64,000 nucleotides of DNA from Eledone cirrhosa (taxonomy: Eukaryota), in assembly GCA_964016885.1 (NCBI GenBank), contig OZ024740.1:344782001-344846000 (forward strand). The letters are read 5' to 3'. A program made the position numbers and the translations under genes. This document shows, in pieces, positions 1-62,570 of this stretch; within the stretch, counting starts at the first letter, position 1; every line of letters starts with the position of its first letter. The notes under the pieces are model-generated. The model worked only from the letters and a program-made list of their open reading frames with translations. It was not told where the DNA came from and made no database searches.

Positions 1-817
1 CTCGGCGCGATTTTACATTTATTGTTCTATACGACACGGTGCATAGGCGCCGATGCTCCATTTTATTAGGTGGGGGGTGAGGCTGACCCTGTACCCAACT
101 TTCTTTACCATTTGTTTGGCATTTTCTAAATCCTCTTGAGATACCGTGAATGCTTCGAATTGTTTTGCCACTATGGCGAAACTGAGGGTCGGTCTTATAA
201 TGTCATTGTTGTTGTTGTTGTTGCTATCGTTATTTGTGTTAATATTAATTTTAGTTTCAGTTGTGGTGGTGGTGACGTCAGTCGTCTTTGGTGCGGAAGA
301 GTCCATTTTGCTTAATTTCATTTCGACATCACGAGTTAATTTATTTTTTTCTTCTTTTGTTTCTGTTGTCGTGGTGGTGGTGGGGGTGGTGGTTGTCGCG
401 GTGGTGGTGGTGTTGGAGGCTTTAACACCTGCAGTCATTGGTAATGGCGGGAAATGAATGTCTGCCTGAGACAAATTTAAAATATTGCTACTGCTTATAT
501 TTTTTTTTGTGTTGGCAAACGTAGTAACATTTACAATGGTGGTGTCGGTGTGAGGTGTTATTTTGTGAGGAAGGGTTTCAGCTGCTTCGTGCAGAGGGGA
601 ATTAGCCATTTTCTTTCAAAGAAATTTTTGGATAATAATAAAAGTTAAAATTTTGGGCACAAGGCCCCAATTTTTTTGGGTGTCCTTTTCGGAAAACAAT
701 GTTTGTGTGCTTATAAACAGTTAACAATAAAATTTTCCATAAATGGCAATTTTTAACAAACGGAAATAACAAACCTCTGCGGAGCTCACGATGATACGAT
801 TTACTACGTAGGTCGCC
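1..817 (-). mobile_element. Probable 5' end (5'UTR and start of ORF1) of an L1/Tx1-like LINE, cut by the window edge
   Basis: Sharp start next to an (AAT)n tract at 818. GC-richer leader with GAGCTCC, then a Thr/Asn-rich ORF (609-19) containing PTLSFAIVAK, similar to the SYA-type motif of LINE ORF1 N-termini. No catalytic domain is visible. Confidence 0.4.
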
Positions 818-2942: not shown

Positions 2943-3011
<69 letters not shown>

Positions 3012-3013
<2 letters not shown>

Positions 3014-3409
3014 GGTGTGAGATGCTTAAAGCGTCCGTAAGTGGTATGCCGTTTCAGCACTCGATGCTCTTACAGAGCAGAGTATAATATCACATAGGAA
3101 ACAGAGAATCAGTGGTGCGACGAATAAGATTTATTAGACATATTATAATCGTTTCTCTGGCGACCAGCTAGAGGCACGATGGATGCAATGATGAAACCTG
3201 ACTCAGAACTCGCAAGACCCTCAGATATGTCTCGATTCTACGAAGCAGAGTTTCGTAGAATCGAGACATATCTGAGGGTCTTGCGAGTTCTGAGTCAGGT
3301 TTCATCATTGCATCCATCGTGCCTCTAGCTGGTCGCCAGAGAAACGATTATAATATGTCTAATAAATCTTATTCGTCGCACCACTGATTCTCCGTTTCCT
3401 ATGTGATAT
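3012..3409 (-). mobile_element. Family B fold-back element with a 158-bp near-perfect inverted repeat
   Basis: Arms 3087-3244 and 3252-3409, 7-nt loop, one mismatch seen. Tail 3012-3086 abuts (TA)n. Homologous to 18010-18560 and 62305-62570. Confidence 0.8.
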
Positions 3410-5317: not shown

Positions 5318-5321
<4 letters not shown>

Positions 5322-6012
5322 ACAATAATAAATTTCAAGACTAAAATCCAAAGAGGGCTCGATAAGGATAAGTATATATCAAATATATAAGAACCGTAGA
5401 GCAAATATTTATTAAAATAACAGATTAAACTTTAAGCAAAGAGTCGCTGCTTTCACCCTTAACGGGATCTTCTGAAACTAACAAAGTCAATCTGTAAACG
5501 CAGAAGTGCATATTTCAAAAAAACGTTGCAACGTTTGTATTTATTTACTTTGTTCTTAACTCTGTAGCGGAGATTCATTCGGTCCCCTAGTTAGAATTTT
5601 AGTCTACGACTTCTGCTATACCATTTACGTTGTTTTGTCTTTGCGTGCTATTGTTCTCCACGATCCACATATGACGTATTATCTTCGTTTTTTTCGTTCA
5701 TTGTCAGAGAACGTCTCTATGCACTACCTAAGAGAACATTAGTCTACGACCACTTTTATACCATAAACGTGGTTCTGTCTTTGCGCGTAATTGTTTTTCA
5801 CCGCTCCTATTAATTACGTATTATTCGTTTTTTCCCGTTCTTTGCCAGCGAACGTTTCCACGAACCAAAGTATCGTCCTCCTGTCTTCCTCCGGTTGCAG
5901 CGTTTTTTGAAATATCCACTTCTGCGTTTACAGATTGACTTTGTTAGTTTCAGAAGATCCCGTTAAGGGTGAAAGCAGCGATTCTTTGCTTAAACTTTAA
6001 TCTGTTATTTTA

Positions 6013-6020
<8 letters not shown>
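5318..6020. mobile_element. Family D fold-back element with a variant hammerhead fold
   Basis: Inverted arms 5405-5532 and 5894-6020. The spacer has a diverged ~140-bp tandem duplication. (TA)n on both sides. Fragments recur at 19405-19558 and 46261-46306. Confidence 0.75.
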
Positions 6021-6705: not shown

Positions 6706-7937
6706 GTAGGAGGTGAGTTTTATTGTAGTACAATAAAGCAATGCAGATATCGGATAAGAAGCACTCTACAGTTTGTAGGACTGGAGTATGCATAATATAA
6801 GATCAAAAGATGGTTAAAGGAGTTCCATGTATTTTATTATGCGCATTTCAAAAACAAACATCATCATGCAATAATATTTGTGTTTTATATCAGATAAAAC
6901 AGGAGAACATGATATGAAGGCTAAAAAACACTTGTAGATAGTGCAGTTTTAAATCTACATATGAAAAGTGGTTTTAGATTGATGTGTGATATTGGGAAAA
7001 ATATTTTATTTAGAGAGGGGGGTGGGGTGGAAAGGATGAAAAAGTGGAGGAGATGAGAGGGAGAGATGGGTGATAGAGAGAAAGAGATAGCTTTTATAAC
7101 TGAGAGGAGATATACTGCCCCACACAGAGAGGTTGAAAACCGTTGGAAGATAATGTATAAACCCCCCCAAAAAAAATTTTTGAAAATCAACGAAAGGAGG
7201 ATATGTGCGAGGAAAAAGTATTTTATTTAGGGAGGGGGGCTGGAAAGGATGAAAAAAGGGGGAGGAGATGAGAGTGAAGGTGGAGAGGGAGAGATGGGCG
7301 ATAGAAAGAAAGAGACAGTTTTTATAACTGAGAGAAAGATACATTGCCTTACACAGAGAGGTTGAGAAACCGTTGGAAGATAATGTATAAATTAAAGGAA
7401 TTTGAAAATTAACGAAGGGAATTTATGTATGACGATAGAGAGAAGAAGTAATAATTGTGGATGAATATTCTAACGTCAAAAAAGGGTATGTTGTGGCAAT
7501 TTCAAAATTAACGAAGAGAAAAGTTATTAAGGTTTGTGTGTAGAAGGATTTGAGAAAAATAATGTGAAGTTAAAGTTTGTATATTGGAGGAATTGATAAT
7601 ATATGCGAATAGAGTTAATATGTATTAAGAATGAGTTCGTTGATGGGGAGAAAAAAAAATTAAGGATGAAATTGAGATTAAAAAGATTTATGAGAGAGAG
7701 AAAAAAATATAATGATTGCGGATAAATATTCTAACGTCAAAAAAACAAAAACAAAAAAACAGATGTATATGTTATGAATGATTTTACAAGGTGAAGATAG
7801 AGTGAGGGTAATGAGTAAACAAGTATTATAGAGTGTATAAAGCCCTTTGAAGTATGGTAGGAAGATGGGTATATTTTAAAGAGGTGTATGTATATGTGCC
7901 TTTGAGAAAAGATTCTAAATTGATAAAGAATTGAATA

Positions 7938-10340
7938 TTAACTGTATACTTTGTGAAAAGTTCTATGGAATTTATGCAGGCAGATAGAAAACAAATCTGT
8001 GCGTCTATTTATTATAGAATCTAGGTTAGAGATAATGGTAAATTTTTCATTTAGGCAGAGATTACAGATTTTAGATAGAGAGCTGTTCAAGTATGAGGAT
8101 GCAGAAGAAATCTTCTTCCAAAAGATGGTATATTTAATGTTTTTGTCTTTTAAGGACCATATGAGTTCTGAGAGAGCAGTGTTAGTTCTTTTAAGTTTGT
8201 ATTTGAAAGATGAATGATGATTATAGAGACGAGCTTTAAAAGAGGTGGAAGTGGAGCCAAAATAGGTGAAGGAAATGGTGCTAGTTATAATTTTACATTC
8301 ATAAATTAAGTTTTTATCGAGACAATGGTTGTTGAGAGGACATTTATTTTTAATGCGGCAGTTGCAATTAGAGAGATTATTAATGAGTGATCTAGTGTTA
8401 TCTATAGAAGGAATTGGATTGGAGAAGTTGTTTGCGATAGGAATAATAGGAATAATAGTTTCTTGATTTAGAGTTGGATTATGAACATTTAGCGAAGTTG
8501 TGTTTGACGTTGTATTTGGGTTTACAGAAGTTAGCCTAGGGTTTACAATGACGTCGGGAGTACTATTACTGTTATTATGAAATTCACTATTGGAAGGAAG
8601 AGATTTAGTATTTAGTATTTTATTGTTGTGTTTAGAGATGATGTTGGAAATATTGGAGGATGTAGAATATGAAAATTTGATGGTGTGTTTGTTAAATATT
8701 TTACTATAGATATGTGAGGGAGGGAAGCATTTATTTAAGGCACTAAAAAATAATTTAGGAATATTGTTATTAATAGAGATGGAGAAAGGAGCATTATACC
8801 AGATTATGTTTTTGTATCTAGGTCTTTTATTAAAATTATTGGAATGGTCATGATTAATTATTCTACTGTAAGTTTTTCTAGAATTTGTTTCTTTACTATA
8901 TTTGATTTTATCTGGATAGCCGGCTTTAGAAAGTGCGTTATTATAGTAATTGGCGTTAGCATCAAAGATGTTTTTATTAGAAGATATGTTAGATATTCTA
9001 TTTCCAATATTATTAACTATAGCATTCTTGATATTGGTAGGATGGTTAGATTTAAAGTTAACATAATTAAGGTTCTCATTGTTTTTATGGTAAGGGTAAT
9101 ATAGGCCAGTGTCAAGATTAAGAGATACATCCAAGAAATTAGCTAGTTTGATACTATTATCAAATTCAATTTTTAGGTTATGTTGGTTAAAGAGATTACG
9201 TATATTGTTCTTAATAATATTAAGGTTAACTATATTGCAATTTAGGATAGTAAAGAGTCCATCGTCACGATAAATTCCACCGCGAAGTTGAGGAATTTTC
9301 CGACTCAAAGAGTTCAAAATGAAGATACCAATTAAATCAGTCAATTGGGATGAATCGGATGCTCCCATTGTGATGTCGAAGTTGTTAGAGGTATCGGCTC
9401 TGGTCCAATATTCGTTGTTGAACTCTAGGATGGGTTTACGTGCGGTGAGGATGATGTGAAGTTCATCTGTGGTGATGTCAGAACATTTAAGTGCGAAAGA
9501 TAGAGCATTATTGAGAAGTGAAGGCGAAATGGAGGAATAGTAGCTGGCAATATCAAATTGAATAAATTTTAGTTTGTTTTTATTATCCAATTTGTTGAAC
9601 CAGCCAATCACTTCAGAAGTACCAAACCATAAATTTAGGTTCAAAGAAGAGCAATTAGAACTAACCTGTGGGATAATTCTATCCAAGATGGCTTTACTAA
9701 CAACCCCCAGATCAGATTTAGAGGGGGCGATTAATCTAACAGGTAGTTCAGTGCGAAAATTGTTTTTGTGATCCTTGAGATTTATCCTCGGAGTTCTTGG
9801 GAGGAATGGTTCGGTCTTTTTTTCAATGCCAAGTTTTGACATAATCTCATAGGCTTCAAGGTTTATGCATTCTAAATTTTCATGGTTGGTTTTACGATAC
9901 TTTTTCCTAAGTTCCTTTAGGATGAGGTTGTTATAATTATCCTTGGAAATACCATATAGGTTATTGGTTTTGTCAGAGTGGACTAAAACATTTTTTGAGG
10001 AATTTAGGTTAGAGATTGTGTTCTTGAGATTTACAAGGTGCTCTTGTCCTTTGTAAGGGTATATCTTGAATTTAAGATTTTTTATTATTTTAGTTAATTC
10101 TTCCTCGAATTGTACTAGATTTTTGTTGGAAGGAGGATTTCGTCTAGAATTAAAAAGATGATCGAGGAAGTTGTGTTCTTTGGTATGAAAGTTCCCTTTT
10201 AGGCGCTGGTCATAGAAATAGGCTGTCCATCTAAGTCTTCTTACGAAGGAGTCAGTTTTTTCAATAAGAAGTTTGGTGAATTCAGATTTACCAGGTATAG
10301 GAATGTCTTTAGTTGAATTTGTTATGTTGTAATAATCCAT
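7938..10340 (-). CDS. PLE polyprotein: reverse transcriptase plus C-terminal GIY-YIG endonuclease (~800 aa), uninterrupted
   Basis: RT motifs FIQFDIASYYSSI, ITMGASDS and GIYRDDGL. EN motifs CNCR..CPL..CL..LIY..YFGST..FKARLYNH and CNLCLNEK. N-terminal STKDIPIP and RRLRW are typical of Naiad-like PLEs. First ATG at 10340; the ORF track starts at a TTG at 10400. Confidence 0.93.
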   Translation of the reverse strand: MDYYNITNSTKDIPIPGKSEFTKLLIEKTDSFVRRLRWTAYFYDQRLKGNFHTKEHNFLDHLFNSRRNPPSNKNLVQFEEELTKIIKNLKFKIYPYKGQEHLVNLKNTISNLNSSKNVLVHSDKTNNLYGISKDNYNNLILKELRKKYRKTNHENLECINLEAYEIMSKLGIEKKTEPFLPRTPRINLKDHKNNFRTELPVRLIAPSKSDLGVVSKAILDRIIPQVSSNCSSLNLNLWFGTSEVIGWFNKLDNKNKLKFIQFDIASYYSSISPSLLNNALSFALKCSDITTDELHIILTARKPILEFNNEYWTRADTSNNFDITMGASDSSQLTDLIGIFILNSLSRKIPQLRGGIYRDDGLFTILNCNIVNLNIIKNNIRNLFNQHNLKIEFDNSIKLANFLDVSLNLDTGLYYPYHKNNENLNYVNFKSNHPTNIKNAIVNNIGNRISNISSNKNIFDANANYYNNALSKAGYPDKIKYSKETNSRKTYSRIINHDHSNNFNKRPRYKNIIWYNAPFSISINNNIPKLFFSALNKCFPPSHIYSKIFNKHTIKFSYSTSSNISNIISKHNNKILNTKSLPSNSEFHNNSNSTPDVIVNPRLTSVNPNTTSNTTSLNVHNPTLNQETIIPIIPIANNFSNPIPSIDNTRSLINNLSNCNCRIKNKCPLNNHCLDKNLIYECKIITSTISFTYFGSTSTSFKARLYNHHSSFKYKLKRTNTALSELIWSLKDKNIKYTIFWKKISSASSYLNSSLSKICNLCLNEKFTIISNLDSIINRRTDLFSICLHKFHRTFHKVYS

Positions 10341-10546
10341 GTTGTAGAAGAAGAGGTGAAGGACCATCAAAAGGTATCCAATATCAGAGTAAGCGCTCAA
10401 CCGTTAAGGAGCAAGTTAATGTAGGAGGTGAGTTTTATTGTAGTACAATAAAGCAATGCAGATATCGGATAAGAAGCACTCTACAATTTGTAGGACTGGA
10501 GTATGCATAATATAAGATCAAAAGATGGTTAAAGGAGTTCCATGTA

Positions 10547-10613
10547 TTTTATTATGCGCATTTCAAAAACAAACATCATCATGCAATAATATTTGTGTTT
10601 TCATCAGATAAAA
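10547..10613 (-). ncRNA. Minimal type I hammerhead ribozyme in the Naiad 5' pLTR
   Basis: UUUUAU-CUGAUGA-long helix II-GAAA-UGCGCA-UA/AUAAAA, with palindromic helix III AUGCGCAU. Confidence 0.85.
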
Positions 10614-11760
10614 CAGGAGAACATGATATGAAGGCTAAAAAACACTTGTGGATAGTGCAGTTTTAAATCTACATATGAAAAGTGGTTTTAGATTGATGTG
10701 TGATATTGGTAAAAATATTTTATTTAGTGAGGGGGGGGGGGGGTGGAAAGCATTAAAAAGGGGAGGAGATGAGAGGGAGAGATGGGTGATAGAGAGAAAG
10801 AGATAGCTTTTATAACTGAGAGGAGATATACTGTCCCACACAGAGAGGTTGAAAACCGTTGGAAGATAATGTATAAACCCCCAAAAATTTTTTGAAAATC
10901 AACGAAAGGAGGATATGTGCGAGGAAAAAGTATTTTATTTAGGGAGGGGGGCTGGAAAGGATGAAAAAAGGGGGAGGAGATGAGAGTGAAGGTGGAGAGG
11001 GAGAGATGGGCGATAGAAAGAAAGAGATAGTTTTTATAACTGAGAGAAAGATACATTGCCTTACACAGAGAGGTTGAGAAACCGTTGGAAGATAATGTAT
11101 AAATTAAAGGAATTTGAAAATTAACGAAGGGAATTTATGTATGAAGATAGAGAGAAGAAGTAATAATTGTGGATGAATATTCTAACGTCAAGACGTTAGA
11201 ATATTCATCCACAATTATTACTTCTTCTCTCTATCTTCATACATAAATTCCCTTCGTTAATTTTCAAATTCCTTTAATTTATACATTATCTTCCAACGGT
11301 TTCTCAACCTCTCTGTGTAAGGCAATGTATCTTTCTCTCAGTTATAAAAACTGTCTCTTTCTTTCTATCGCCCATCTCTCCCTCTCCACCTTCACTCTCA
11401 TCTCCTCCCCCTTTTTTCATCCTTTCCAGCCCCCCTCCCTAAATAAAATACTTTTTCCTCGCACATATCCTCCTTTCGTTGATTTTCAAAAAATGTTTGG
11501 GGGTTTATACATTATCTTCCAACGGTTTTCAACCTCTCTGTGTGGGACAGTATATCTCCTCTCAGTTATAAAAGCTATCTCTTTCTCTCTATCACCCATC
11601 TCTCCCTCTCATCTCCTCCCCTTTTTAATTCTTCCCCCCCCCCTCACTAAATAAAATATTTTTCCCAATATCACACATCAATCTAAAACCACTTTTCATA
11701 TGTAGATTTAAAACTGCACTATCCACAAGTGTTTTTTAGCCTTCATATTATGTTCTCCTG

Positions 11761-11827
11761 TTTTATCTGATGAAAACACAAATATTATTGCATGATGATG
11801 TTTGTTTTTGAAATGCGCATAATAAAA
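11761..11827 (+). ncRNA. Minimal type I hammerhead ribozyme in the inverted pLTR copy
   Basis: Same fold as 10547-10613, read directly on the + strand (CTGATGA 11767-11773, GAAA 11810-11813). Confidence 0.85.
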
Positions 11828-11859
11828 TACATGGAACTCCTTTAACCATCTTTTGATCT

Positions 11860-11927
<68 letters not shown>

Positions 11928-15230: not shown

Positions 15231-15762
15231 TGGCAGAAAATTTATGTTGAAATACATACATGCATGCATACATACATACATGCATTCACACATACATACG
15301 TACATATACATTCGTTGCTATATATTAACGCATGTATGATGCAGCTACGTGAAAGTAAAATGATATTGCTTAAGGGAGTTTTGTGAAGTCATTGGAGATA
15401 TCTTGAATATTCCTGAATATTTTCAAAGAGCTAAATTCTATGAGGAAGATAGATATTAAATCCTACTTTTCCCTTCAAACGATACTCACACATATTATTA
15501 TGACATTAACATAATCATATGATATATAACTATATCTGTGTGTGTATGTGTATGTATGTAAATCAGTGTGTGTGTGTGTGTGTGTATGCATGTATGTGTG
15601 TATGTATGAATTCATATATAAATACAAGTTAGAAGGCAATCATCCACTAACTGCCGCGCAAGAAATCTAACTGGATTTAAGTTTCCCACACATATTGTCG
15701 ATACACTTACTCAAACAAATAGTTTCAAAATACTTTTTTCTCACAGATTATTTTATGTACGT

Positions 15763-17258
15763 ATGTACGCCTTCTACCACCTCGTGAAAACACACAAACA
15801 GGGACCCGACCTGAAGATCAGGCCCATTGTATCGAGCGTGAAAGGACCACTCTACAAAATTTCATGGCTCCGAGCCAGAATACTCAAACCCATCTTAGAC
15901 ACCTTGCCGGGACACGTTAACAGCTCCGAGGAGGTGTTGAAGCGCCTGCATTAAATGGATCCCGACACCAGAAAGAATAACAGATATGCCTTCAGCCTTG
16001 ATGTAGTCGCTCTCTACCCCTCGGTCCCGGCACTCCCGACCGTCAATATACTGATGGAACTCGTCCAATCCACCGACCTACACTGCTTTGGGCTCACCAC
16101 CACTGACATCCAACAACTCCTATCCATCGTCGTCGACAACACCTACTTCGGATTCCTTGACCAAATATACCAACAAACCTCGGGTCTGCCCATGGGATCA
16201 AGCCTGTCGGGTGTGCTAGCGATCTCTTACATGGACAACCTCGAGCGCAAGGCACTCAACGCCTGCCACCCCAACGCCGTCGCCTTTTTCTCAAGGTACG
16301 TGGACGGTATCCTCATCCTCACATCTTCACAAGACACGGCGAACAGAATCTATGAGACGTTCAACAACACGAGCGAGAACATTGACTTCAGTGTTGAACA
16401 CCCCAACGAAGACGGGTCACTTGCCCTCCTCGACTTCCGAATCAACATCACGGAACAGGGAGGGATCCACTGCAACTTCTGTCGAAAGGCAGCCTTCAGG
16501 GACTTGTTCATCCAATAAAGTCCGCCCTCCCTAACAGTGCCAAAAGAGGATACATCACGAACGAGATCGCGCGAATCAAAAACAGATGCAGCGATCCCGC
16601 GAGTGGTGTCACTCATACCAAGCAATTCCTCGAGATGCTGGAGACGAACGGGTACCCTACCTCGCTCACAGACAGAGTAGGAGACACCAGACACAATAGA
16701 CAGAGAGGTACCCAAGGCAAGTGCTTCCTTAAAATGCCACGCCTGGGCGAGAATACCACCAACGCTATCCGCGAGGCAACTCGGAGGGAGGGCCTCGACA
16801 TCCACCTGGCCCACTCGGGCCCCTCCCTGCGTAGATGCCTCTCCGGGAAACCCGGGAAATCAACTGACGCGTGCTCCCTCAGAGACTTCCCGATGCGCCA
16901 TGCGAACTGTTGCCTACGCACATACGTCGCGTATAAGAGAGAATGTAACAAGTGCAACCAATACTATATAGGTAGCACACTCAGGCCGTTGCACATCCGG
17001 ATCAAGGAACACACTAAAACCAGGGCCTCGTCTTTCCGGAAACACATAGCCAACTGCGGAAACAAAGACGGAAGGCCCATTGTCACAATCCTAGAGACAG
17101 AAAGAAACATCGGAACGTTACGTATCAAGGGAGCACTTTGGATCTAACGCATATGACCACAATTAAACAACCGATCCGAGAGAAGCGAAATGAGGTGGTT
17201 GGTTTAAGTTAACAAACGATGCAGCAACACACGCACACACACACACAAACGAGACAGC

Positions 17259-17299
<41 letters not shown>

Positions 17300-17892
17300 A
17301 CACACACACATACACACACAGTAGCATTCCACCATACGAACATACTACACTGCCAATACAGAGGAACAAGGCAACAACACACGCACGCACACACACACTC
17401 AAGCGAGACGACAACACACGCACACACACACACACAGAGTAAAATTCAACAAACAGGCAGAGAATGGACTGACAGCTAGCGCCACCCCACTCCCACAATT
17501 AAAAGAACTACTTCGGCCGCTGACCTCTGCCTGACCGACCCCATTTCACGCGCACGCGCGCTCTGCTGAATACCTCAGATAATCAGAACAACGAACAGCG
17601 GAGGACACGTTTCGCACCTTTCCGACAGACACCCTTTCCCCCACCCCGGAAAAAAACGCCCAGTTGAAGGATGTGAATCCGAAATATATAGGGACAATTA
17701 AATCTCTTCCAAGGTAACTCTCTCTCCTGTTGTTATTTTTATTTTTATCCTTTACGCTCTTTCCTTCATTCTACTACACGCCTTATACACGTCACGTATC
17801 TCAACGTACACCCACTTACATCTCTCTCTCCACCACCGGATCTTGTTACCCGGAGATTATCCCATTTGCATTGTCGAGGCTTCCAGACGACT

Positions 17893-18009: not shown

Positions 18010-18560
18010 TAAACTGAGTCCAGATGCACCACTGATTTTTCGTGTTCTTATATTATCCACACTCTGCTCTGTATGAATATTGAGTGCTAATGTTGGCATT
18101 TCGCCTATGGAAGCACCATAGCTACCATTATACACAAGTATATATATATATATATATACTTGTGTATAATGGTAGCTATGGTGCTTCCATTAGCACTCAA
18201 TATTCATACAGAGCAGAGTGTGTATAGTATAAGAAAACGAAAAATCAGTGGTGCATCTGGACTCAGTTTATTGCGTGTTACAATTGTTTCGCCGACAGGT
18301 AGCTCGAGACATGATCACTGTATGGATCTGGCTGATTCTACGGCTGCAGGTTCCCTCGGACACGGACAGTTCGTTCGGAATATTTTTTTTCACAGTGAGA
18401 CACCTGCCGGCGAAACTATTGTAACACGCAATAAACTGTCTCCAGATGCATCACTGACTTTTCGTTTTCTTATACTATCCACACTCTGCTCTGTATGAAT
18501 ATTGAGTGCTAATGTCGGCATACCTCCTATGGATGCACCATAGCGACCATTATACACAAG
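18010..18560. mobile_element. Three alternating-orientation family B copies
   Basis: + copy 18010-18138, short (TA)n, - copy 18159-~18390, + copy ~18402-18560. Confidence 0.8.
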
Positions 18561-18717
18561 TATATATATTTTATTATACTATTATACTATATATATATAT
18601 ATATATATATAAATATATATATTCACTCTAGCATAGCTGATATATAAATGTAAGTATGCACACGTAAACACACACACACGCACACACACACACACACAAA
18701 CACCCACACACACACAG

Positions 18718-18787
<70 letters not shown>

Positions 18788-19404
18788 CAGCATATATATT
18801 TATATATATATACATACAGACACATATTTGTACGTATGAGTTTTATCAAACATTAATAATAATATTCGATTGGTCTGGAAAGAAACGGCCCGATCTGTAG
18901 CTGTCCCGTCCCGATGAGTGATCGTCACTTGTTTGTTCAACACTGGTTTTGAAGAACAATCAACATATTTCTGGGTCATTACCTTTCATCAGGACTGTAT
19001 ACCTTTGCCAGTCTATTGAACGGTTAAATATATATAGTATTTTCTTAAGTACACATCGGCTGTGTAGCCTCATTTGCATACCGAGCCAGCAACGTCTGGC
19101 CTTGCTGAGTATTAAAAACAATATTAAAATTTCATTTCTCGCCCTAGCACATCTGGTCTGCACACGTACATATATATGTATATATATATATATAAAATAA
19201 AATAAAATAAATAAGTCAAATGTTTAAAATTTGGCTTCGTTTATTACTGCTATATATATTTCGGTGACAGTCATCTTTGGCTGTGACCTCTTCCAATCTG
19301 CATACTGAGGTGTTCGTATACAACAAACATATACTCAAAATTTATATATATATATATATATATAATCTACATATAATGTACATATGGGTTATATATATAT
19401 ATAT

Positions 19405-23993: not shown

Positions 23994-24144
23994 ACCCGTC
24001 CCTCAATCTATCGTATTTCTCATACTTTCTTCTGATGAAGGACTAGCGTCCGAAACGTTAAGACCGTCTTCCTGCTATATCAAGCGTTAACCAAATATAT
24101 CCCTTCCATATACTGTACTGATTGTGTTGTTATTTCTGTTTACC

Positions 24145-24708: not shown

Positions 24709-24856
24709 TGGCAGTATTGGTAGAGGCCCTTGCTATTTTGAGTTCAAATCCCGCCGAGGTTAACTTTGCCTTTCATCCTTACGGGTTCGATAAAATAAAG
24801 TACCAGTTATGCACTGAGTAATTGCTGGCCTTGTGCCAAACGTAGAAACAATTATT
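24709..24856 (+). mobile_element. tRNA-derived SINE (octopus-type), internally deleted
   Basis: A-box TGGCAGTATTGG, B-box GAGTTCAAATCC, core GCCTTTCATCCTTACGGG..GATAAAATAAAGTACCAG and tail GGCCTTGTGCC. Confidence 0.85.
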
Positions 24857-24945
24857 TATTCAAAGTAATCCAACTTATTTTACTAATGGGATAACAAATT
24901 ATAAACCGTACGCAGTCCCGCGCTCCTCTATTTATTATAGTTTAG

Positions 24946-25238
24946 ATTTCAAGTGTACCAACATTTTGGTACGCCCTCATCAGATAAAATACAAAAGTTG
25001 TTTTATAAATATTGACATATCCAAAAAACAAGAACTTATCGTTTTAATTTCACTTTTTCTGAAACTGAACTATCCAAACTGAATTTAAAACGATAAGCTC
25101 TTGTTTTTTGGATATGTCAATATTTATAAAACAACTTTTGTACTTTATCTGATGAGAGCGTACCAAAATGTTGGTACCCTTGAAATATATATAATAAAAT
25201 AAATATGGTTTTATAAAGTATAGTTTCCATTTATTAAT

Positions 25239-25242: not shown

Positions 25243-25310
<68 letters not shown>

Positions 25311-25433
25311 GCTAAACATTGATGCAATTCAATTCAAGCACTCAACGTACTTTTTCCACATAGGAGTGACGGAGTAAATATCGAATAAGGAAAAGCGAAG
25401 TAGTTTCAGATGTTCAAGTCCTTTAATAATAAT

Positions 25434-25507
25434 GCTGTGATATATATTTCAGTGACGAGACTGGCCACACTGTTCTGTGTGCGAATGTCGTGTCATCATC
25501 AGACAGC
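25434..25507 (-). ncRNA. Type I hammerhead ribozyme (3' repeat)
   Basis: GCUGU-CUGAUGA-helix II-GAAA-UAUAUA-UC/ACAGC. The base of helix II is slightly irregular. Confidence 0.75.
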
Positions 25508-26731
25508 TTGTTACATAATAAGCTTATGTTTCCGAGGCAATCCAAATGGGATCGACATGGGAACGGATGAATTGCGTGTTTTTGGGTCTTTCATCCGCTC
25601 CCTTGTGAGTACCAATTCACCCCCACCGGCCTGCGCAAGCGCATGTCCGAAGGAAGTTGACCATTAGCCACCGCAGATTTCAACGAAATTCGCTTAGTCA
25701 GTTCACCCTCTCAGCCAAAACAATGGCCCACCAATGCCTGTACCATATTTTACTGCTACCCATCACGGCTGTGGCAGTCAGCCGAGAGCCAGAGGGGATG
25801 GGAGAGTGTTAGATTTTACAGGTCATAATACTACACCTCTCTAAGCGTTGACGGTACGACTGACCATCACCTTATAAGGGAAAATAAACTTAATTCTAGG
25901 TATCATGGTTTTACGTTGGAAGTTAAGAGTGAGAGTTGGAAATAAAAATTAAAATCCTAAATCAAATATCAGAAATTATAAATTAAACAATTAAGAAATT
26001 AACAATTAGAAATTAAAGAATTTAAACAAAATTCTTTTCAGGTGATAATTCGGATTGAGGTGAGTAAAAATATAGACTGAAATGAGTAAATAATATGGAG
26101 AGAGATGTTTAAGTAATATGTTCTGAGAGGGATTCTAGTGTCACAGTTACTCTATCCACATATTGAACGACAGTGCCGTACATTATAACTGATGGCAAAC
26201 TACAGGGCTCTAGGCATTAGTCAATAATTTCCATCACATGGAACAAAATCAAAGAAAAACAGACATAAAGTACACAAAAGAAAAGAACAGAACCAATAGT
26301 GAATAAATGCAAAAACACAGAGTACATATATGCAAAATGATCCATATGATTGTCCATCTGTCCATGTATAGATTGAATTGAGCGGGCTTCTGTTCAAATG
26401 CGATTTGGTGCAGGAATATAGGGGTTTATCCTATTATTTGTTTCCGCGTATTTATCCTGCTGAAAGTTACTATTATGACCGTCCAGTATAAGGGGTTTCC
26501 ATCCCAATGGTAGAGGGAATTTCCGGGGTAGCTTATGGTTGGTTCCTCTCTTCTCCACCATATCGGTTACATCGTAAAGTGCTCAACTAATTGGAGCTAA
26601 ATTATTAGGGTAAACATTGATGCAATTCAATTCAAGCACTCAACGTACTTTTTCCACATAGGAGTGACGGAGTAAATATCGAATAAGGAAAAGCGAAGTA
26701 GTTTCAGATGTTCAAGTCCGTTAATAACAAT

Positions 26732-26805
26732 GCTGTGATATATATTTCAGTGACGACACTGGCCACACTGTTCTGTGTGCGAGTGTCGTGTCATCATCAG
26801 ACAGC
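26732..26805 (-). ncRNA. Type I hammerhead ribozyme (5' repeat)
   Basis: Same core. Helix II contains ACGACACU/AGUGUCGU and CACAC/GUGUG. Confidence 0.78.
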
Positions 26806-26984
26806 TTGTTACATAATAAGGTAATGTTTCCGAGGCAATCCAAATTGGATCGACATGGGAACGGATGAATTGCATGTTTTGGGGTTTTTCATCCGCTCCC
26901 TTGTGAGTACCAATTCACCCCCACCGGCCTGCGCAAGCGCATGTCCGAAGGAAGTTGACCATTAGCCACCGCAGTATATATATA

Positions 26985-27140
26985 ACTGTTTCATTCGGGA
27001 GAAATCACCAGGAAGCCCTGATAATTTCTCCCGAATGAGACAGTCCTGTCGCAGCCATTTCTATATTAAATATTTATACTCTGCTATGTATTGAGTATCT
27101 TACTTACTGTGATTACCCCCGATTGAACCCGGGATAAACT
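26985..27140 (+). mobile_element. Small fold-back pLTR element with a decayed hammerhead
   Basis: 28-bp arms 26985-27012 and 27017-27044. The arm consensus is CTGATGA..GAAACAGT. The tail has the ACTC..GAGT hairpin. Confidence 0.6.
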
Positions 27141-34725: not shown

Positions 34726-35439
34726 TGTATATGTAATGTAATACTTACAATTCCTGTTGATTCCGCTGAATGACATTACATATAGAAGGCCAAATTTAAA
34801 TAATTCGAATATATAGTGGTACTTAATTTTGAACGTATGAACATATATTCTAATATTCCTGGTTTAATCTTGGACAACGTGCCGTATACACAATTGAATT
34901 TACCCTATAATGATAGTTGATTCTTCTATATGCCCCAGGCCATGAGGAAAGCTTTTAGCCAACTATATGCTCTCTAGGTATTGAAATATTCTGTACTTTA
35001 TCGACCATGAACATATAATATACACTACTGACCGATGTAGGATTTAAAGTTAGAATCTATATAGCCGTGACATATTCAGAAAAGTAGCATGTATTTGGCT
35101 CTAAGAAATCAACAAATCCAACGCCGTTGGCTCAATTTTTAATGAATACATTTATTTCATTCACCTAGAGCAAAATACAAAGTCGATATTGTAATGGCAA
35201 AAGAAAAACCACCGATTTTAACTTGCGTGGGGCTTCCAGATTTTTTTATCAATTTCATTTTCTAAATTGTCGCAGAGTTACACATCTTCATCTAAACAAT
35301 AGGTATTCATATATAGACACGCACAAATATATAGAATATATACATATGTATAAAAACATACAAACGCACATACATAGTGCATATATATATATGATGCACC
35401 AACATCAACAACAAAACACACAACATAGTAAACAGACTT

Positions 35440-38307
35440 AATATTGAAGATAGAACTGAACCTTTGGCACTGAAAAAACCACATTTCAACCTGAAAGATC
35501 ACAAATCTAACTTTAACTCTAATCCTTCTATAAGGCTTATATGCCCTTCCAAATCTGATATTGGCATCATTAATAAAATAATTTTAGATAGAGTCATCCC
35601 ACAATTAAGAAAACATGTTAATTTACCACTCTGGGAAAACACATCCCAGGTAATTAACTGGTTTACTAATATTAGAAATAAATCTTCTGCTTCATTTCTA
35701 CAATTCGATATAGATAATTATTATTCCTCTATATCACCTATACTCCTGAAAAAAGCCTTTAAATTTGCCAAAAATAGATCAAACTTAACTATGGATGACA
35801 TTAATATTATCACACATGCTAGACAAACACTACTGGAATTTCAAAAAGAATACTGGACCAGAAACACATACAGTAATCTATTCGACATTACTATGGGCTC
35901 AAGTGATTCTGCCCAAATTACCGATCTTGTGGGCCTCTTTCTTCTATTTAACATAAATGCTTCTTTTCCCCACCTTAAAGGTGGTTTATATCGTGACGAC
36001 TGTCTTCTTCTTTCCAATACCCTTAGCCTATCAGAAATTGAAAAAAAACAACAACTTATTAGAACTTTCCTCAAAGACTATTATAGTCTAGATATTACAT
36101 TTGAAAACACAAGTAAAGTAGTTAATTTCCTTGATATAACATTAGACTTATCTACGGGTATCTACCAACCTTACTATAAACCTAACCAAAACTTACATTA
36201 CATACACTCACAATCTAATCACCCTAAATCTATCCTTAAAAACCTAGCATATAATATCTCACTCAGAATTTCTAACCTTTCGTCTAACCAGGATGTATTT
36301 GATAAAAATGCGACCTTTTATAACGAAGGTTTAGCTAGAAGTGGCCACAAAAACAAATTAGTATATATACCTTGTACCAATAACACAACAATAATACAAA
36401 CCAATATTACCAACAAACACCAAATGAAATATACACACCTAAATGCCACTCACACTATACCCAAAAATACCAACATAAAACTTAATTTCTCTAACTCTTT
36501 TAATATACAATATAGTAACTTTCAAAAAACTATTCTTCCTAATACTGCAATATATGTTAATAATAAAATTCCTAATAAAGAGGCTAAAACACCTAAATCA
36601 ATGAATCTAACTAAAAATATGTGTAATAAAATCATTAACAATAATTCTCTTAATAAACATTAGGATACATCCTATAAAAATAATAAACAACATCGAAACC
36701 GTAATAGACGAGTTACTTGGGATAATGCTCCATTTAATCTACAAATTAAAGATAATATACCTAAAATTTTTTTTACTATCCTAGAAAAAAACTTCCCGCC
36801 AAACCACAAATACCATCACATTTTAAATAGATCAACGGTTAAATTCTCCTACTCAACAACCAAAAACATACAACAAAATATAAGTGCCTATAATGCATAT
36901 AAATGTAAAAAAAAACATGAATATACCACAATACATCAAACTAACCATAATACTAAAATAAACCACAGCAAACCACCATCTCATTCACATACAAGTCGTG
37001 AAAATTCCACACCTAATTTGACTATCTCCTCTGATACAGCATTCACGAAAGGTTGTAACTGTAGAAACAAAGCAAATTGCCCATTAAAAGGAAATTGCCT
37101 TATTAATAACATAGTATATAAATGTAAAGTTAACACTAAGGACTCAATTTATTCATATATAGGAGCTACTTCTAACCAATTTAAAGTAAGATTTAATACC
37201 CACAAACACAGTTTTAAAAATGCCGCATTGGCTAATACAACAGCTTTAGCTGAAATAATTAATAATTATAGAAAGTGGAATAATAACACTTTTTTTTAAT
37301 TAGTTAACCTATAATTAATATTGTACTACTAATGAACTGCATAATTTTATTTCCCTTTTACAGCTATCTTTTCCTAAAATTTATACCATTAAGTATACAT
37401 ATAAACTATTTTAATTTCAGGTTATGATTCTATGTTCCTTATAATCTATACAAATTTGTTATTTCTCACTAATAAATTGACCCCCCCCCCCCCCATAATT
37501 ATTATTATTATTTTTTATTTTCCCAACGTTTTTAACAGCACTCTTCAATTACATCTAACTCTTATTTATCATATCCATTTGAATTAATATAAATTTATTA
37601 ATATAAATATACCTATCAATTTAATTAGTTTCTCTTTATAACTCCCTATATTTTAAATAAGATTGATATTTTTCACTAACACATTTATCGTAAAATTTTA
37701 TTCTCCTTAGATATTTGCATTGGCATTATTCTTTTATAACATCAATTTTTCGTGTACCTTTTACCGACTTGACCTATTTTCATCCCTAAAATAATCTTTT
37801 CATTCATCATACTCTTTCCATTCAAAACTGAAATCTGCCTTCCTCTACCCCTAAATTAAAGTTCTATTACTACTATTTTACCATCTTGACCATTTACTAC
37901 CTTTCTATTGGTCAATTCAAAACCTGTTCCCAAACAGACCTATTATATTAAATCTTTGTTTTTTTTTTTCAATAAACAAATATAATTATTTCTGAAGACA
38001 GCATATATATGTGTAGGTATGTATATTCCCTCTGATAGTTTGTAAAGATTTTACATAGATCTATATGATATACATACCAACACAAACATATGTATCCTAG
38101 AAACGATCGTAAAATGAGGATTTTTTTAATATAAGGAACTGTTTCTTTGTTTTTATTCATTATTTTTATTAATTTATCTTGACTGTGTTTTCCTGTATTT
38201 TTCATCTGAAATTTTTTTTTGAATACATCCTCTCTTTTCATGATATTCAGATTACATTGAGTTCTTCATACGGATTGGACACTACCGTACATTTTGGTAG
38301 ATTTATC

Positions 38308-38310
<3 letters not shown>
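35440..38310 (+). mobile_element. 5'-truncated, disrupted second Naiad-type PLE with a long 3' UTR ending at (TA)n
   Basis: ORFs 35464-36663 and 37018-37299 are clearly homologous to 7938-10340 (LKDHK, FLQFDID, ITMGSSDS, GLYRDD, CNCR..CPL..YIG). TAG at 36661, a frameshift near 36910, and the EN C-terminus is missing. Confidence 0.9.
37986..38117 (+). ncRNA. Hammerhead with a ~100-nt helix II in the 3' UTR of the second Naiad
   Basis: UUAUUU-CUGAAGA...GAAA-CGAUCG-UA/AAAUGA. Helix II includes GGUAUGUAUAUU/GAUAUACAUACC. Confidence 0.72.
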
Positions 38311-38364
<54 letters not shown>

Positions 38365-38519: not shown

Positions 38520-38690
38520 GGAAAGATTCAGGACCCGGACGGCTGAGCTCCGGTCGTTTCGTCAGCTGTCGGAACAGCCATGGCTCAGCCGTCGGGGTCC
38601 TGAATCATGCTACCCACTCTACTATCCCAAGTATCAAGTACTCTGGTGCGTTATGGTACACCTGGTATCTTACCACAACCTCTTTGTTAT
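38520..38690 (+). mobile_element. Family C fold-back element, copy 2
   Basis: Homologous to 2016-2191 and follows (TA)n. Confidence 0.75.
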
Positions 38691-39404: not shown

Positions 39405-39892
39405 TCCATAGTCGTTTAAATAAACGGTTGTTTTTCAATTATTTACATATTCATTTGCATTCATTCACACATAAGTTTGAAAAATCCCTAATATATTTCC
39501 ACTATCCAGTGAATATCCAACCGATAAGGTACGATTTTCATGGGTATGTCTCTATTTATGAAACAAACTTTGTATTTTATATGATGAAAATGTGGCTTGG
39601 TACCCATTGTATATATATATATACAATGATATTAAATAAATGGAAACTATATTTATAAAACAATATTTATTTTATTATATATATTTCAAGGGTACCAAGA
39701 CACATTTTCATCAGATAAAATACAAAGTTTGTTTTATAAATAGAGACATACCCATGAAAATCGTACCTTATCGGTTGGATATTCACTGGATAGTGGAAAT
39801 ATATTAGGGATTTTTCAAACTTATGTGTGAATGAATGCAAATGAATATGTAAATAATTGAAAAACAACCGTTTATTTAAACGACTATGGAGA
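39403..39892. mobile_element. Tail-to-tail inverted pair of family E-related pLTRs
   Basis: Arms 39403-39605 and 39690-39892. Minus-strand CTGATGA..GAAATATATATA/ATAAAA at 39670-39720 with a weak helix II. The tail matches 25186-25242. Confidence 0.8.
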
Positions 39893-40418
39893 GAGAGAAA
39901 GTAGAGATAAAAGGAGAAGGATAAAATAGTGCGACAGAAAGAGAATAAAGAAACAAGAGAAGAAGAATAAAAACTCATATAACGTTAATTTGAGGGAAAT
40001 ATATTCTAAGTATATATTTTAATAGTACGTGTAGTTACGATTACTAGTTGTTTAACATTTGTTTATAATATAATATTTTTCTTCCGTTATAAGTAGATAA
40101 ATGAATAAATAAATACATAAATAAATAAATAAATAAATAAATAAATAGATGGGTATATCATGTTATTGATAATTGTTCTAATGAGTTATGAGGGATATTG
40201 GTTTTGTATTTAATGTAAATAAATATTAAGTTAAATTAAATTAAATTAACTGAGTTAATAAGAATATTGATATTTATATGATTTAAAATGGGAAGTTACG
40301 GAAAAAACTCCGGTTTAATTTATTTATTCGTTAGGGTGAGACTATTTAGTCAAAATAACTATAGATGTTAAAAGATACATTTAGCCAGAATCAATTAGGG
40401 GTTATAAATCTATTGAAA

Positions 40419-40598
40419 AATAATTGTTTCTACTTTAGGCACAAGGCCAGCAATTACACAGTACATTACTGGTACTTTATTTTATCGACCCCGTAGGATG
40501 AAAGGCAAAGTTAACCTCGGCGGGGTTTGAACTCAGACTGTAAAGGGACGTACCTATGCTAGAGAGCATGGCGTCCAGCCCTCTACCAATACTGCCAA
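40419..40598 (-). mobile_element. Full-length tRNA-derived SINE
   Basis: Reverse complement of the SINE at 52373-52557, with A-box, B-box, core and tail. Confidence 0.9.
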
Positions 40599-40835
40599 TT
40601 CACATGAAAAAATATTGATAAAGTATTGAAAGAATATTGAAAAAGTATTGACAAATTATTGAAAAATTTGAGAAAATTAAAAAAATAATAATAATTTATA
40701 AGAGATAAGTAATTTTTAAAGAAATAAAAATTAAAGAAATAAAAATAAATAAATAAAAATTATGAGAATTAAAATTGAAATTAAAATTAAAATAAAATTT
40801 TAAAAAAAATTAGAATTATATATGTATAAATTTTA

Positions 40836-41233: not shown

Positions 41234-41523
41234 TCAGAAGATTTGAATATATAACGATATATATGCATACATATGTGTTTATGTGTGTACTGGTCCAGTT
41301 TTATTTTCCTTACCTTTACTACAGTGGTCAAACTGAATTGTATGCACATCATACGTAAGAGATCAATTTCTATACATTTTTATATTTATCCTATTATCGT
41401 ATCAACGGCAAGGCTTTTGGTGCTAAGGAACCAATTACTGATGAATCTTATTCTTGTTTGGGTATTAATGTGTTGCATTATAACACCAACGGCATTATTT
41501 TCTATAGACTTTAGGGTGGTGGA

Positions 41524-41930
41524 TTGACAGTATCGGTGGAGGGTCTGATACCCTGCTTTTCAGTATAGAGTTACGGTCCTTTACGGTCTGAGTTCAAATC
41601 CCGACGAGGTTAACTTTGCCTTTCATCCTTACGGAGTGGTTAAAATAAAGCATCAGTAACGTACTGGGTTCGATTTAATCGACTTCCCCTACCCACAAAT
41701 TAATGTCCTTGTGCCTACAGTAGAAATCATTTTCTATGGAATTTAACAATATTGGATTGGCAGTATCGGTAGAGAGTCGGACACCATGCTTTGCAGCTTA
41801 GAGTTACGGTCCTTTACGGTCTGAGTTCAAATCCTGAAGAGGTTAACTTTGCCTTTCATCCGTACGGGGTCGATAAAATAAAGTTCCAGTAATGCACTGG
41901 CATAATTGCTGGCATTGTACCAAAAATAGC
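41524..41930 (+). mobile_element. Two tandem SINE copies (41524-41731 and 41758-41930)
   Basis: Each has an A-box, a GAGTTCAAATCC B-box and the GCCTTTCATCC core. Confidence 0.88.
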
Positions 41931-47078: not shown

Positions 47079-47157
47079 GCGTGTGTGTGTATGTGTGTGT
47101 GTATGTGTTTAAATATGTGTTTACGTGCGTGTTTGTATTCATCTATAAATATATATA

Positions 47158-47334
47158 TCCGTATGATGTTGACGGCTGAGATAAAGGAGTACTCAATAAC
47201 GAAGTAGAGTTTTAATATTCATTTGTATTAATGCTAAAACGTGCGTCTATTGTGGATTTTCGCCTTGTTACCAGACTGATGACCTTATGATAAACAGAGT
47301 ATCAAAACGTTTTAGCCTTAATACAAATGAATAT
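47158..47334 (-). mobile_element. Small fold-back pLTR element with a decayed hammerhead
   Basis: Arms 47215-47242 and 47307-47334. CTGATGA at 47276 with GAAA decayed to AAAA. Tail hairpin at 47191-47210. Confidence 0.55.
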
Positions 47335-47379
47335 ATATAACTCAATAACACCAGTCAGCGAAGTACTTCAGATAATGAG

Positions 47380-48589: not shown

Positions 48590-48780
48590 AATGGGGAAAA
48601 GTATGACCACGATGGCAGAGCTCAAACCGTTTCGACGGCTATTTAGTTCAGAAATAGCCGTCGAAACGGCTTGAGCTCTGCTGTCGGGGTGATATTTTTC
48701 TCATTACCCACTCTACTACCCTAAGTAATGAGTATTCTGGTGCGTTATGGTCCATCCGGTTCCTTACCACAACTCCTTCG

Positions 48781-48782
<2 letters not shown>
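48590..48782 (+). mobile_element. Family C fold-back element, copy 3
   Basis: Homologous to 2016-2191 but with a longer apex. (TA)n on both sides. Confidence 0.78.
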
Positions 48783-49497: not shown

Positions 49498-49982
49498 AGA
49501 TTAAATGTTACACAACACCTATAACGATAAACTCACTAAAGTTTGCACCTCGTGCGTTGAAAGTGATATGCGGTGCGAGTGGTTATGCTAGAAATAAAAT
49601 GATATTGATATGGTCTGTATGAGAAATCTTGTAAGAAATCTTGTAACATCCCATATGATTCAGGTTGAATGATATATAACATTTGTGGTGTAATCTACCC
49701 CCGTAATTTTAGACACGGGATTTACTGTGTTTACTTCTACACATATTAATATTTTAATGTTCAGCATTTATACTTTGAGCTTGTTAATTGCAGGGTAGCT
49801 ATATGAGTTAATAACTCTATATTTTATTTGTATTTCGGCTCCTTATCTATTGAGCTTATAAAAATGAGTGTAAATAGGCTATTATTTCTAGCATAACCAC
49901 TCGCCCAGCATATGACCTTCAACGCACGAGGTGTAAACTTTAGTGAGTTTATCGTTATAGGTGTTGTGTAACATTTAGTCTT

Positions 49983-50074
49983 ATCTCTCGCTGACGAAAT
50001 GCCTACGGATTACTTGTTACAAACACGATTCATTCAGGGCGAAACAGATTACAGCTTTAGTCTGTCCGGGAGAT
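49983..50074 (+). ncRNA. Full type I hammerhead with a stable 8-bp helix III, GUC site
   Basis: Helix I AUCUCUCG/CGGGAGAU, core CUGACGA (49991) and GAAA (50041), helix III ACAGAUUA/UAGUCUGU. Predicted cleavage after 50066. Confidence 0.85.
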
Positions 50075-50335
50075 GAAATTGTTATTGATATGGTATGTAT
50101 GAGAAATCTTGTAAGAAATCTTGTAACATCCCATATGATTCAGGTTGAAAGATATATAACATTTGTGGTGTAATCTACCCTCATAATTTTAGACACGGGA
50201 TTTACTGTGTTTACTTCTACATATATTAATATTTTAATGCTCACTATTTATACTTTGAGCTTGTTAATTGCTGGGTATCTATATGAGTTAATAACGCTAT
50301 ATTTTATTTATTTGTATATATATATATATATATAT

Positions 50336-62304: not shown

Positions 62305-62570
62305 ATATAATATAAAACGAAAATCTGTGATGCATCTGAACTCACACGATCATTGTGTGGATCTGTCTGATTCTGGATCCGCAGGTTCGACGGACACGTC
62401 TAATGATTTCGGAGCAAATTCTCTCGGAAACAATTGTAACACACAATAAATTGAGTTCAGATGCATCACTGATATTTAGTTTTATATTATATCATACTCT
62501 GGTCTGTTAGAACATAGAGTGGTCAACTGGCATACCGCCTATGGAAGCATCTTAGCTACCATCAGACACA
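62305..62570 (+). mobile_element. Family B fold-back element, diverged copy
   Basis: Inverted part ~62305-62410 and direct part 62427-62570 are homologous to 18159-18560. (TA)n flanks. Confidence 0.75.

Follow-up and report, generated by a model that had tools for sequence, protein, structure and literature searches.

The reverse transcriptases (RTs) of Penelope-like elements (PLEs) and those of telomerase form sister groups, so an RNA element that positions the template in PLEs would be of wider interest. Stringent LINEs and their partner SINEs (e.g., eel UnaL2 and UnaSINE1) carry a single 3′ stem-loop, which lies upstream of the start and is copied into each insertion. In L1 twin priming, two target-strand primings produce an inverted insertion: the internal site of the second priming varies, and the two arms are free of overlap.

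Within the PLEs, Craig 2021 (PMC8557442) describes a Hydra clade with a C-terminal GIY-YIG lacking CCHH, the motifs CxxC/CxH, DKT, CxCx5C, and RWK, a hammerhead, and insertion into (TA)n; Naiad elements there have an N-terminal GIY-YIG, DKA, and no canonical hammerhead. The same study, which already noted the one-sided tail in qualitative terms, called for an in vitro system. In PAc, a Poseidon PLE, reverse transcription starts at two internal sites that flank the tail, each target strand is extended, the reaction depends on RNA 3′ of the starts, and a dimer is predicted (Frangieh 2024, PMC11167929); the binding motif is left undefined in that report and is only hypothesized to lie within the first 172 nt of the ORF. 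A circular monomer was proposed for PLEs earlier, in work on their minimal hammerheads (Cervera and de la Pena 2014, PMC4209133), and non-LTR retrozymes are non-coding, hammerhead-bearing PLE derivatives with short units in tandem repeats and circular RNAs of ~170 to 400 nt (Cervera and de la Pena 2020, PMC7229834).

How PLE RNA is recognized, and why the tail occurs at one end only, are the open questions that we address here. In Hydra elements of the window (the whole 64,000-nt stretch of Eledone cirrhosa DNA analyzed) and beyond it, a small hairpin occurs twice in tandem downstream of the hammerhead, as hp1 and hp2, ~55 to 100 nt apart. Copy ends are bimodal: short ends lie just before hp1, and long ends lie 63 to 85 nt past the hp1 start, depending on the family. 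Cis-acting stem-loops and PLE tails are known kinds, but a duplicated, downstream-acting, clade-wide start signal appears to be new, and the link between the one-sided tail and paired hairpins is our addition. We found no earlier description of the motif in the text of the open-access literature: “stem-loop” is absent from the main text of Craig 2021 (PMC8557442), and both “hairpin” and “stem-loop” are absent from its supplement text (in which one figure page is textless) and from the main texts of PMC7229834, PMC4209133, and Li et al. (bioRxiv 10.64898/2026.07.22.740005).

Hydra1 and its relatives in the window

Judged by its encoded motifs and its pLTRs, the element with the ORF at 7938–10340, Hydra1, fits the Hydra clade of PLEs. 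Its DKT occupies residues 123 to 125 (HSDKT in the ORF), its CxCx5C linker reads CNCRIKNKC, and, by translation and alignment, its GIY-YIG-like block has CxxC and CxH around a conserved E and N and no CCHH; the hammerhead in the pLTR and the (TA)n insertion are both present. The alignment gives RWT for Hydra1 and RWK for most relatives covering the site. The earlier note on this DNA had called the element Naiad, an identity ruled out because the endonuclease is C-terminal and a hammerhead is present, its core intact in most pLTRs, with DKT instead of DKA. A SECIS, an idea from the Naiad literature, was dropped because the Hydra1 ORF has no in-frame stop.

Hydra1 agrees with the Hydra clade of Craig 2021 (PMC8557442) in domain order, its DKT, CxCx5C, and CxxC/CxH motifs, hammerhead, (TA)n targeting, inverted pLTR, and one-sided tail. 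It differs in tail length (63 to 85 nt here, 30 to 40 nt there) and in its unit of 3.7 kb (3719 nt; ~3.5 kb in family C, below), which is above the published tendency of <3 kb. A Pfam scan returned no match for Hydra ORFs, Hydra1 included, and the viral contigs searched contained no relative; Hydra elements occur on short contigs of two bacterial MAG records (L201–L203), probably as host-animal contamination. No RNA data set was listed as carrying the pLTR/5′UTR stretch, a result that does not bear on expression. The Hydra1 family is young: there are at least 79 near-identical copies of the ORF (79 of 79 scored matches are 98 to 100% identical), and these provide test material. Its parts in the window are as follows.

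7938..10340, minus strand: Hydra1 ORF, intact, 800 aa; RT first, GIY-YIG C-terminal; RWT, DKT, CxCx5C, and CxxC/CxH motifs
6763..6787, minus strand: hp1 of the downstream pLTR, with (TA)n behind the long end at ~6703
10478..10502, minus strand: hp1 of the upstream pLTR
10395..10412, minus strand: hp2, overlooked previously; starts 6 to 8 nt past the long-end position and ends 55 nt before the ATG
10545..10615, minus strand: predicted minimal type I hammerhead of the upstream pLTR, read from the sequence; predicted cut at ~10553, 51 nt before hp1
6830..6900, minus strand: hammerhead of the downstream pLTR, its core mutated in the window copy
11192..11866, plus strand: inverted arm, short-ended 4 to 7 nt before the expected hp1 start, followed by (TA)n

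Related families and copies of the window are listed next.

3010..3409, minus strand: family B, from another Hydra ORF family: an inverted insertion consisting of pLTR only; hp1 at 3059–3083; one long and one short end
18014..18562, no strand assigned: diverged B-like copies; hp1 at 18061–18085 (plus), 18195–18219 (minus), and 18483–18507 (plus); includes a long/long pair
62427..62570, plus strand: decayed B-like copy; hp1 at 62496–62520
48590..48782, plus strand: family C, from a third Hydra ORF family: an inverted insertion of the pLTR end; hp1 at 48710–48733 (other family C hp1 copies, with one stem change each, at 2120–2143 and 38616–38639)
5318..6016, minus strand: family D, from a fourth Hydra ORF family: an inverted insertion, truncated; hp1 at 5357–5402
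25308..26975, minus strand: 1298-nt non-coding Hydra-type element; hammerheads at 25439–25502 and 26737–26800, hp1 at 25340–25375 and 26638–26673, hp2 at 26581–26597
26980..27140, plus strand: “singleton,” a pLTR end whose Hydra ORF family is multicopy; hp1 at 27078–27096; hp2 atypical
47151..47343, minus strand: small inverted insertion; weak hp1 at 47191–47210
49596..50310, plus strand: further family, read from the sequence; weak hp1 at 49759–49780 and 50239–50260; hp2 at 49838–49855, just past the long-end position
35395..37299, plus strand: Hydra2, a broken copy of a second Hydra ORF family; hp1 and hp2 degenerate

Frequency, structure, and spread of the hairpin

All 11 coordinate ranges in the earlier note contain the sequences it gave, although the copies at 18061, 62496, 47191, and 5357 (family D) are decayed and fail a strict scan of the masked window (ACTC, at least three upper pairs, a 2-nt 3′ bulge, and GAGT). 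That scan returned nine hairpins, whereas 150 block-wise dinucleotide shuffles averaged 1.45 and reached 5 at most; with a bulge of 0, 1, or 3 nt instead of 2, it gave 0, 1, and 1 matches. Because the strict pattern was post hoc and the window copies are related, we turned to held-out DNA, namely, 60 evenly spaced 10-kb stretches of the 3.0-Gb genome. Two of these (L033 and L080) were dropped as satellite arrays with units of ~52 to 56 nt, which match the hairpin pattern through repetition and thereby inflate naive hairpin counts. In the remaining stretches, 24 of the 44 ACTC hairpins with a 2-nt bulge sit 25 to 80 nt before a (TA)n run, compared with 0 to 4 for each of 11 permuted and 2 reversed lower stems, and with 0/23, 1/14, 5/17, and 0/7 for bulges of 0, 1, 3, and 4 nt, respectively.

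The consensus is RCUC-Y-stem-loop-R-UN-GAGY-RCU. In a set of 59 hairpins picked by anchor sequence alone (three rows are spurious anchors but were kept in the count), upper pair 1 is formed in 57 of 59 (C-G in 30, U-A in 25; shuffle mean 40.5, maximum 46), pair 2 in 39 of 56 (24.3 and 37), and pair 3 in 35 of 43 (17.5 and 29); at other bulge sizes, only 3 to 20 hairpins of this set are paired at upper pair 1. In the hairpin alignment (A3), 95.8% of cells pair, a value reached by none of 500 shuffles (a test that ignores relatedness, with two window rows shortened and misaligned) and compared with 23 to 55% in slid controls. The hairpin is thus real, covarying, and above chance, and the persistent pairing and 2-nt 3′ bulge that were first noticed in the window stand, the pair counts exceeding the shuffle maxima. 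What does not stand is a bulge of two free bases, since the first is U in 57 of 59 hairpins (UU 35, UC 14, UA 8).

Folded alone, the sequences at 6758–6793, 3054–3089, 48704–48738, and 5352–5408 have the bulged hairpin or a register variant of it as the minimum-energy fold; those at 25335–25381, 27072–27101, and 47185–47216 do not, and within 136 nt of context the minimum-energy fold is a different one as well (z −0.38). Thermodynamically the hairpins are of low stability, and hp2 often has only one or two upper pairs. Among the Rfam matches listed (150 of 159), none reaches the gathering score, and nearly all are to miRNA models on microsatellites or inverted repeats.

Hydra elements of other organisms carry the same motif. 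By eye, it is clear in three of six published Hydra consensi, one from a coral (Hydra-2_Amil) and two from sea cucumber (Hydra-2_Ajap and Hydra-1_Ajap, the latter showing it twice ahead of the ATG). It carries a single mismatch in Hydra-1_Crog, from a copepod, is weak in Hydra-1_Amil, and is not seen in the Hydra-1_Obim consensus, which is without a pLTR. We further collected 83 Hydra-like loci from other organisms, representing 64 families, of which 34 are testable (a hammerhead with enough sequence behind it). A strict hairpin follows the hammerhead within 110 nt in 19 of the 34 (shuffles average 0.055), 28 to 56 nt past the hammerhead cut site; controls gave 0, 0, 1, and 2 for bulges of 0, 1, 3, and 4 nt, 1 on the reverse strand, and 0 on the upstream side. 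Among the 15 families that fail the strict pattern, ~8 have a shorter or once-mismatched version by eye, two reach (TA)n before the hairpin position, and the others show little or nothing. A stricter hammerhead-anchored scan (29 matches in 7 clusters) was set aside as too strict. The one other clade compared, a non-Hydra PLE family with a DKG motif (window 15622–17147), has no hairpin of its own in any of 20 loci, the single match being an inserted family C copy. Taken together, these comparisons indicate that the hairpin motif is clade-wide in Hydra PLEs.

Copy ends and a proposed start signal

We mapped 171 TA-junctions over five families, part of the set having been fetched by patterns ending at long ends. 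Long ends make up 83 of them, within 20 nt before hp2, and 75 of these start the TA run at −6 to −8; short ends make up 54, within 20 nt before hp1, and 46 of these lie at −5 to −10. The other 34 fall outside both intervals, 16 of them in family D. In three families from other organisms, the end lies at −6, −6, and −7 relative to the hairpin, and TA starts at −9 to −4 in 42 of 52 outside hairpins, against 17 to 30 in three equal-size upstream intervals. The hairpin had been placed near the 3′ end, which is correct for hp1 before long ends; hp1 itself, however, marks the short end, one of a pair.

On the strength of Hydra1 and the 1298-nt element, we predicted hp2 behind the long ends of the other families before looking for it there. 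The search (long end, 2 to 10 nt, then RCTC; a minority of matches are chance RCTC after TA runs) gave 374 matches for family C, 492 for D, 11 for B, and 3 for the B-like form, with reversed controls at 0 each, and a full hp2 is visible in most fetched loci of these four families. In read-through copies of the window, hp2 lies a few bases past the long end both in Hydra1 and in the 1298-nt element (26581–26597). A family-blind hp2 pattern based on the motif only gave 104 matches (control, 0): of the first 30 loci, which represent only three families, 29 have a Hydra ORF just downstream and 20 have hp1, such that the motif finds Hydra elements without protein homology. The spacing from hp1 to hp2 is 76 to 99 nt in the E. 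cirrhosa genome and mostly 54 to 74 nt in outside loci. There are two exceptions: Hydra2 long ends precede a degenerate hp2, and the hp2 of the 27078 family is an unbulged variant.

Both end types meet in single insertions. Both ends are visible in 12 of the 21 full-length Hydra1 loci (the window copy and 20 fetched ones), and all 12 have one long and one short, the main copy being long in 7 and short in 5. Among 30 further inverted pairs, 24 are long/short, although two of these are apparently a single locus that was duplicated; 2 are long/long, none is short/short, and in 4 one end is unclassified. Overall, 35 of 37 classified inverted insertions have one end of each type, compared with about half expected if the ends were chosen independently (binomial ~5e-9, calculated by hand). 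The arms have independent 5′ truncation points; in 6 of the 12 full-length copies, the inverted arm extends further 5′ than the adjacent direct arm and therefore is not a fold-back of that arm, ruling out simple fold-back as a general origin in these six. Fold-back may account for some copies, including the window Hydra1, whose two breakpoints coincide. Upstream and downstream pLTRs differ at 0 to 3 of ~255 nt in 15 of 19 loci (the window copy is one of the four outliers), compared with a median of ~2% between loci, which fits one template read more than once.

We consider it probable, if far from settled, that each hairpin binds the element protein and sets an RT start just upstream, that each target strand uses one hairpin, and that the tail is the interval between the two starts. 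The protein would nick both strands of a (TA)n target; each 3′-OH would pair with the UA beside one hairpin, the hairpin placing this upstream UA at the active site; and two cDNAs would run outward from the same template and be joined head to head, leaving as the tail hp1 plus the spacer up to hp2. Less firmly, a protein dimer might occupy both hairpins of one RNA, and the template might be a hammerhead-cut monomer, possibly circularized. Long-ended full-length copies require an hp2 behind the downstream pLTR, where a typical genomic copy has none; such a monomer could supply it, as could a tandem array (compare the 3.5-kb arrays of family C). More tentatively, and with somewhat less than even confidence, we propose a built-in twin-priming for Hydra in which the RNA is cut by the hammerhead and probably circular, a dimer clamps the two hairpins at its head, and the subunits prime one nicked (TA)n strand each, 6 nt upstream of their respective hairpins. 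As in L1, two target-strand primings would then give an inverted insertion; unlike in L1, both sites are fixed and the arms overlap.

The outline in Frangieh 2024 (PMC11167929), though from another clade, lends this two-start model support by analogy: in PAc/Poseidon as in our proposal, the tail is delimited by two RT starts that lie downstream of the hammerhead, and the reaction needs RNA 3′ of them. PAc/Poseidon differs in having an AC-rich stem loop and a cis-signal left undefined, and the text of that report (PMC11167929) describes start sites that did not differ between the strands, with no duplicated motif or one-start-per-strand rule. A circular-template model for pLTR formation is likewise shared with the PLE and retrozyme literature (PMC4209133, PMC7229834). 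What the Hydra data provide is a conserved motif of ~20 to 30 nt, a spacing rule (a proposed start 5 to 10 nt upstream, at UA), and a pairing rule (one proposed start per strand). If the twin-priming proposal is true, one two-part RNA element would explain the tail, the inverted pLTR, and mobilization in trans, and the closest relatives of telomerase would gain a defined template-positioning RNA element.

Could the hairpins act in DNA instead? Formed in single-stranded cDNA or as cruciform arms, they would direct the GIY-YIG to cut at TA 5 to 8 nt away and so resolve an integration intermediate, and the ends would be cut sites, not RT starts. The tail has been ascribed to EN-mediated resolution (Craig 2021, PMC8557442), the Drosophila virilis tail is needed for EN recognition, and the PAc enzyme favors AT-rich DNA (both recounted in Frangieh 2024, PMC11167929); moreover, the element TA upstream of each hairpin resembles the (TA)n target. 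Upper pairs 1 to 4 include 10 G-U and 5 A-C, and the outer pair adds 4 A-C, with no clear strand bias that would tell folding in RNA from folding in DNA. Nonetheless, we find this main rival unlikely: the only PLE reconstituted so far has tail ends that correspond to RT starts on RNA (PMC11167929), the independent 5′ truncations of the two arms are as expected from two RT runs, and the GCTC and GAGC arms are variably spaced (total hairpin length 16 to 41 nt), which is hard to reconcile with a double-stranded palindromic site of fixed form.

The hairpin was originally likened to LINE/SINE stem-loops, that is, to a single 3′-terminal recognition signal that recruits the protein, with copying from the RNA 3′ end downstream. 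Part of that likeness survives, in that a small cis stem-loop is common to autonomous and non-autonomous partners (Hydra1 and the 1298-nt element) and hp1 sits 28 to 63 nt before the long end in coding and non-coding elements. The Hydra motif, in contrast, comes as a pair, and each end is marked by a hairpin located downstream of it; hp2, which a single stem-loop leaves unexplained, is not copied at the long end, and short-ended full-length copies lack hp1 at that end. Distances also point the other way, since the interval from the hp1 start to the long end varies from 63 to 85 nt by family, whereas that from the long end to hp2 is nearly fixed at 6 to 8 nt. A single recognition stem-loop is therefore improbable.

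We hold it to be highly improbable that the hairpins serve only the processing of the RNA, be it the folding of the hammerhead, ligation of a circle, stability, or translation, and that the ends are set by AT microhomology alone. The position of the hairpins, 28 to 56 nt past the hammerhead cut site and just before the ATG, would suit such a role, the PAc hammerhead is protein-assisted (Frangieh 2024, PMC11167929), and stem III of published Hydra hammerheads often reads ACTC-n-GAGT. Stem III varies between families, however, while the lower stem of the hairpin is constant, and pairing between the two was rejected on this ground; furthermore, the pLTRs hold many other TA tracts, yet ends cluster at the two hairpin-linked sites, and the long/short pairing is left unexplained. 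Finally, chance or shared ancestry of the flanks without a selected structure is scarcely credible: the motif has few bases, and families that are related do not count as independent, but it persists, with compensatory changes, across families ~35 to 60% identical in protein whose flanks are unalignable, and it passed the held-out and blind tests.

Coding and non-coding families

The hairpin had been described as shared by one autonomous element and six non-coding families. Behind hp2, however, families B, B-like, C, D, and 27078 run into Hydra ORFs ~35 to 45% identical to the Hydra1 protein (for 27078, at one locus, L251), and the B-like form at 18014–18562 belongs to an ORF family with hp2 elsewhere in the genome. 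These five are truncated ends of ORF-bearing Hydra families, and the read-through loci rule out their non-coding status; in genomes of this kind, many of the short repeats taken for “non-coding” are thus coding families cut down to their ends. A tight pattern found no read-through parent for the insertion at 47191. The hairpin had also been reported, without coordinates, as not clearly present in families E, F, and G. The hammerhead family at 24931–25235 and 39635–39794 has no hairpin in the window only because these copies are short-ended, as long copies elsewhere have hp1 and one has hp2.

The 1298-nt element alone is shown to be truly non-coding: its longest frame is 87 aa, with no similarity to 19 Hydra proteins. 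Its 45 matches, from 40 scored candidates, have the hammerhead, hp1, hp2, and both end types, and, because it retains the hammerhead and both hairpins, it would be mobilized in trans. A structured, end-linked cis-signal common to coding and non-coding elements is thereby upheld for Hydra1 and the 1298-nt element, though not for six non-coding partners. The element resembles retrozymes (PMC7229834) in being non-coding with a type I hammerhead and differs from them in its 1.3-kb unit, its pLTR and inverted structure, and its lack of a short tandem unit.

Several further observations concern individual families. Family C occurs head to tail in arrays with four or more ~3.5-kb units (C1:91476611–91487271 and C1:437200339–437210965); in the family C locus L214, the N-terminal frame is open and the hammerhead core appears altered. 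Hydra2 (35395–38313; L103 and L105) has three hairpin-like elements, of which two are degenerate and the third is near-canonical, ~35 nt before the ATG and behind an internal TA-rich tract. The motif-only search (L313–L342; window 19290–19342) brought up further Hydra families ~48% and 43% identical to Hydra1, and at least eight Hydra ORF families coexist in the E. cirrhosa genome.

The non-Hydra PLE (15622–17890) is broken, with DKG, a TTGA-type hammerhead core, and at least 150 copies, and a TA run marks its end too. Other repeat ends that have a hammerhead but no hairpin, likely from other PLE clades, lie at 24033–24140, 18923–19080, and 50658–50935. An abundant SINE-like repeat is often tandem and often inserted into the PLEs (24735–24863, 40413–40603, 41494–41942, and 52094–52560). 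The window also holds a non-LTR retrotransposon-like RT in pieces (54610–58033, minus strand) and, at its start, a Thr-rich open frame (19–615, minus strand).
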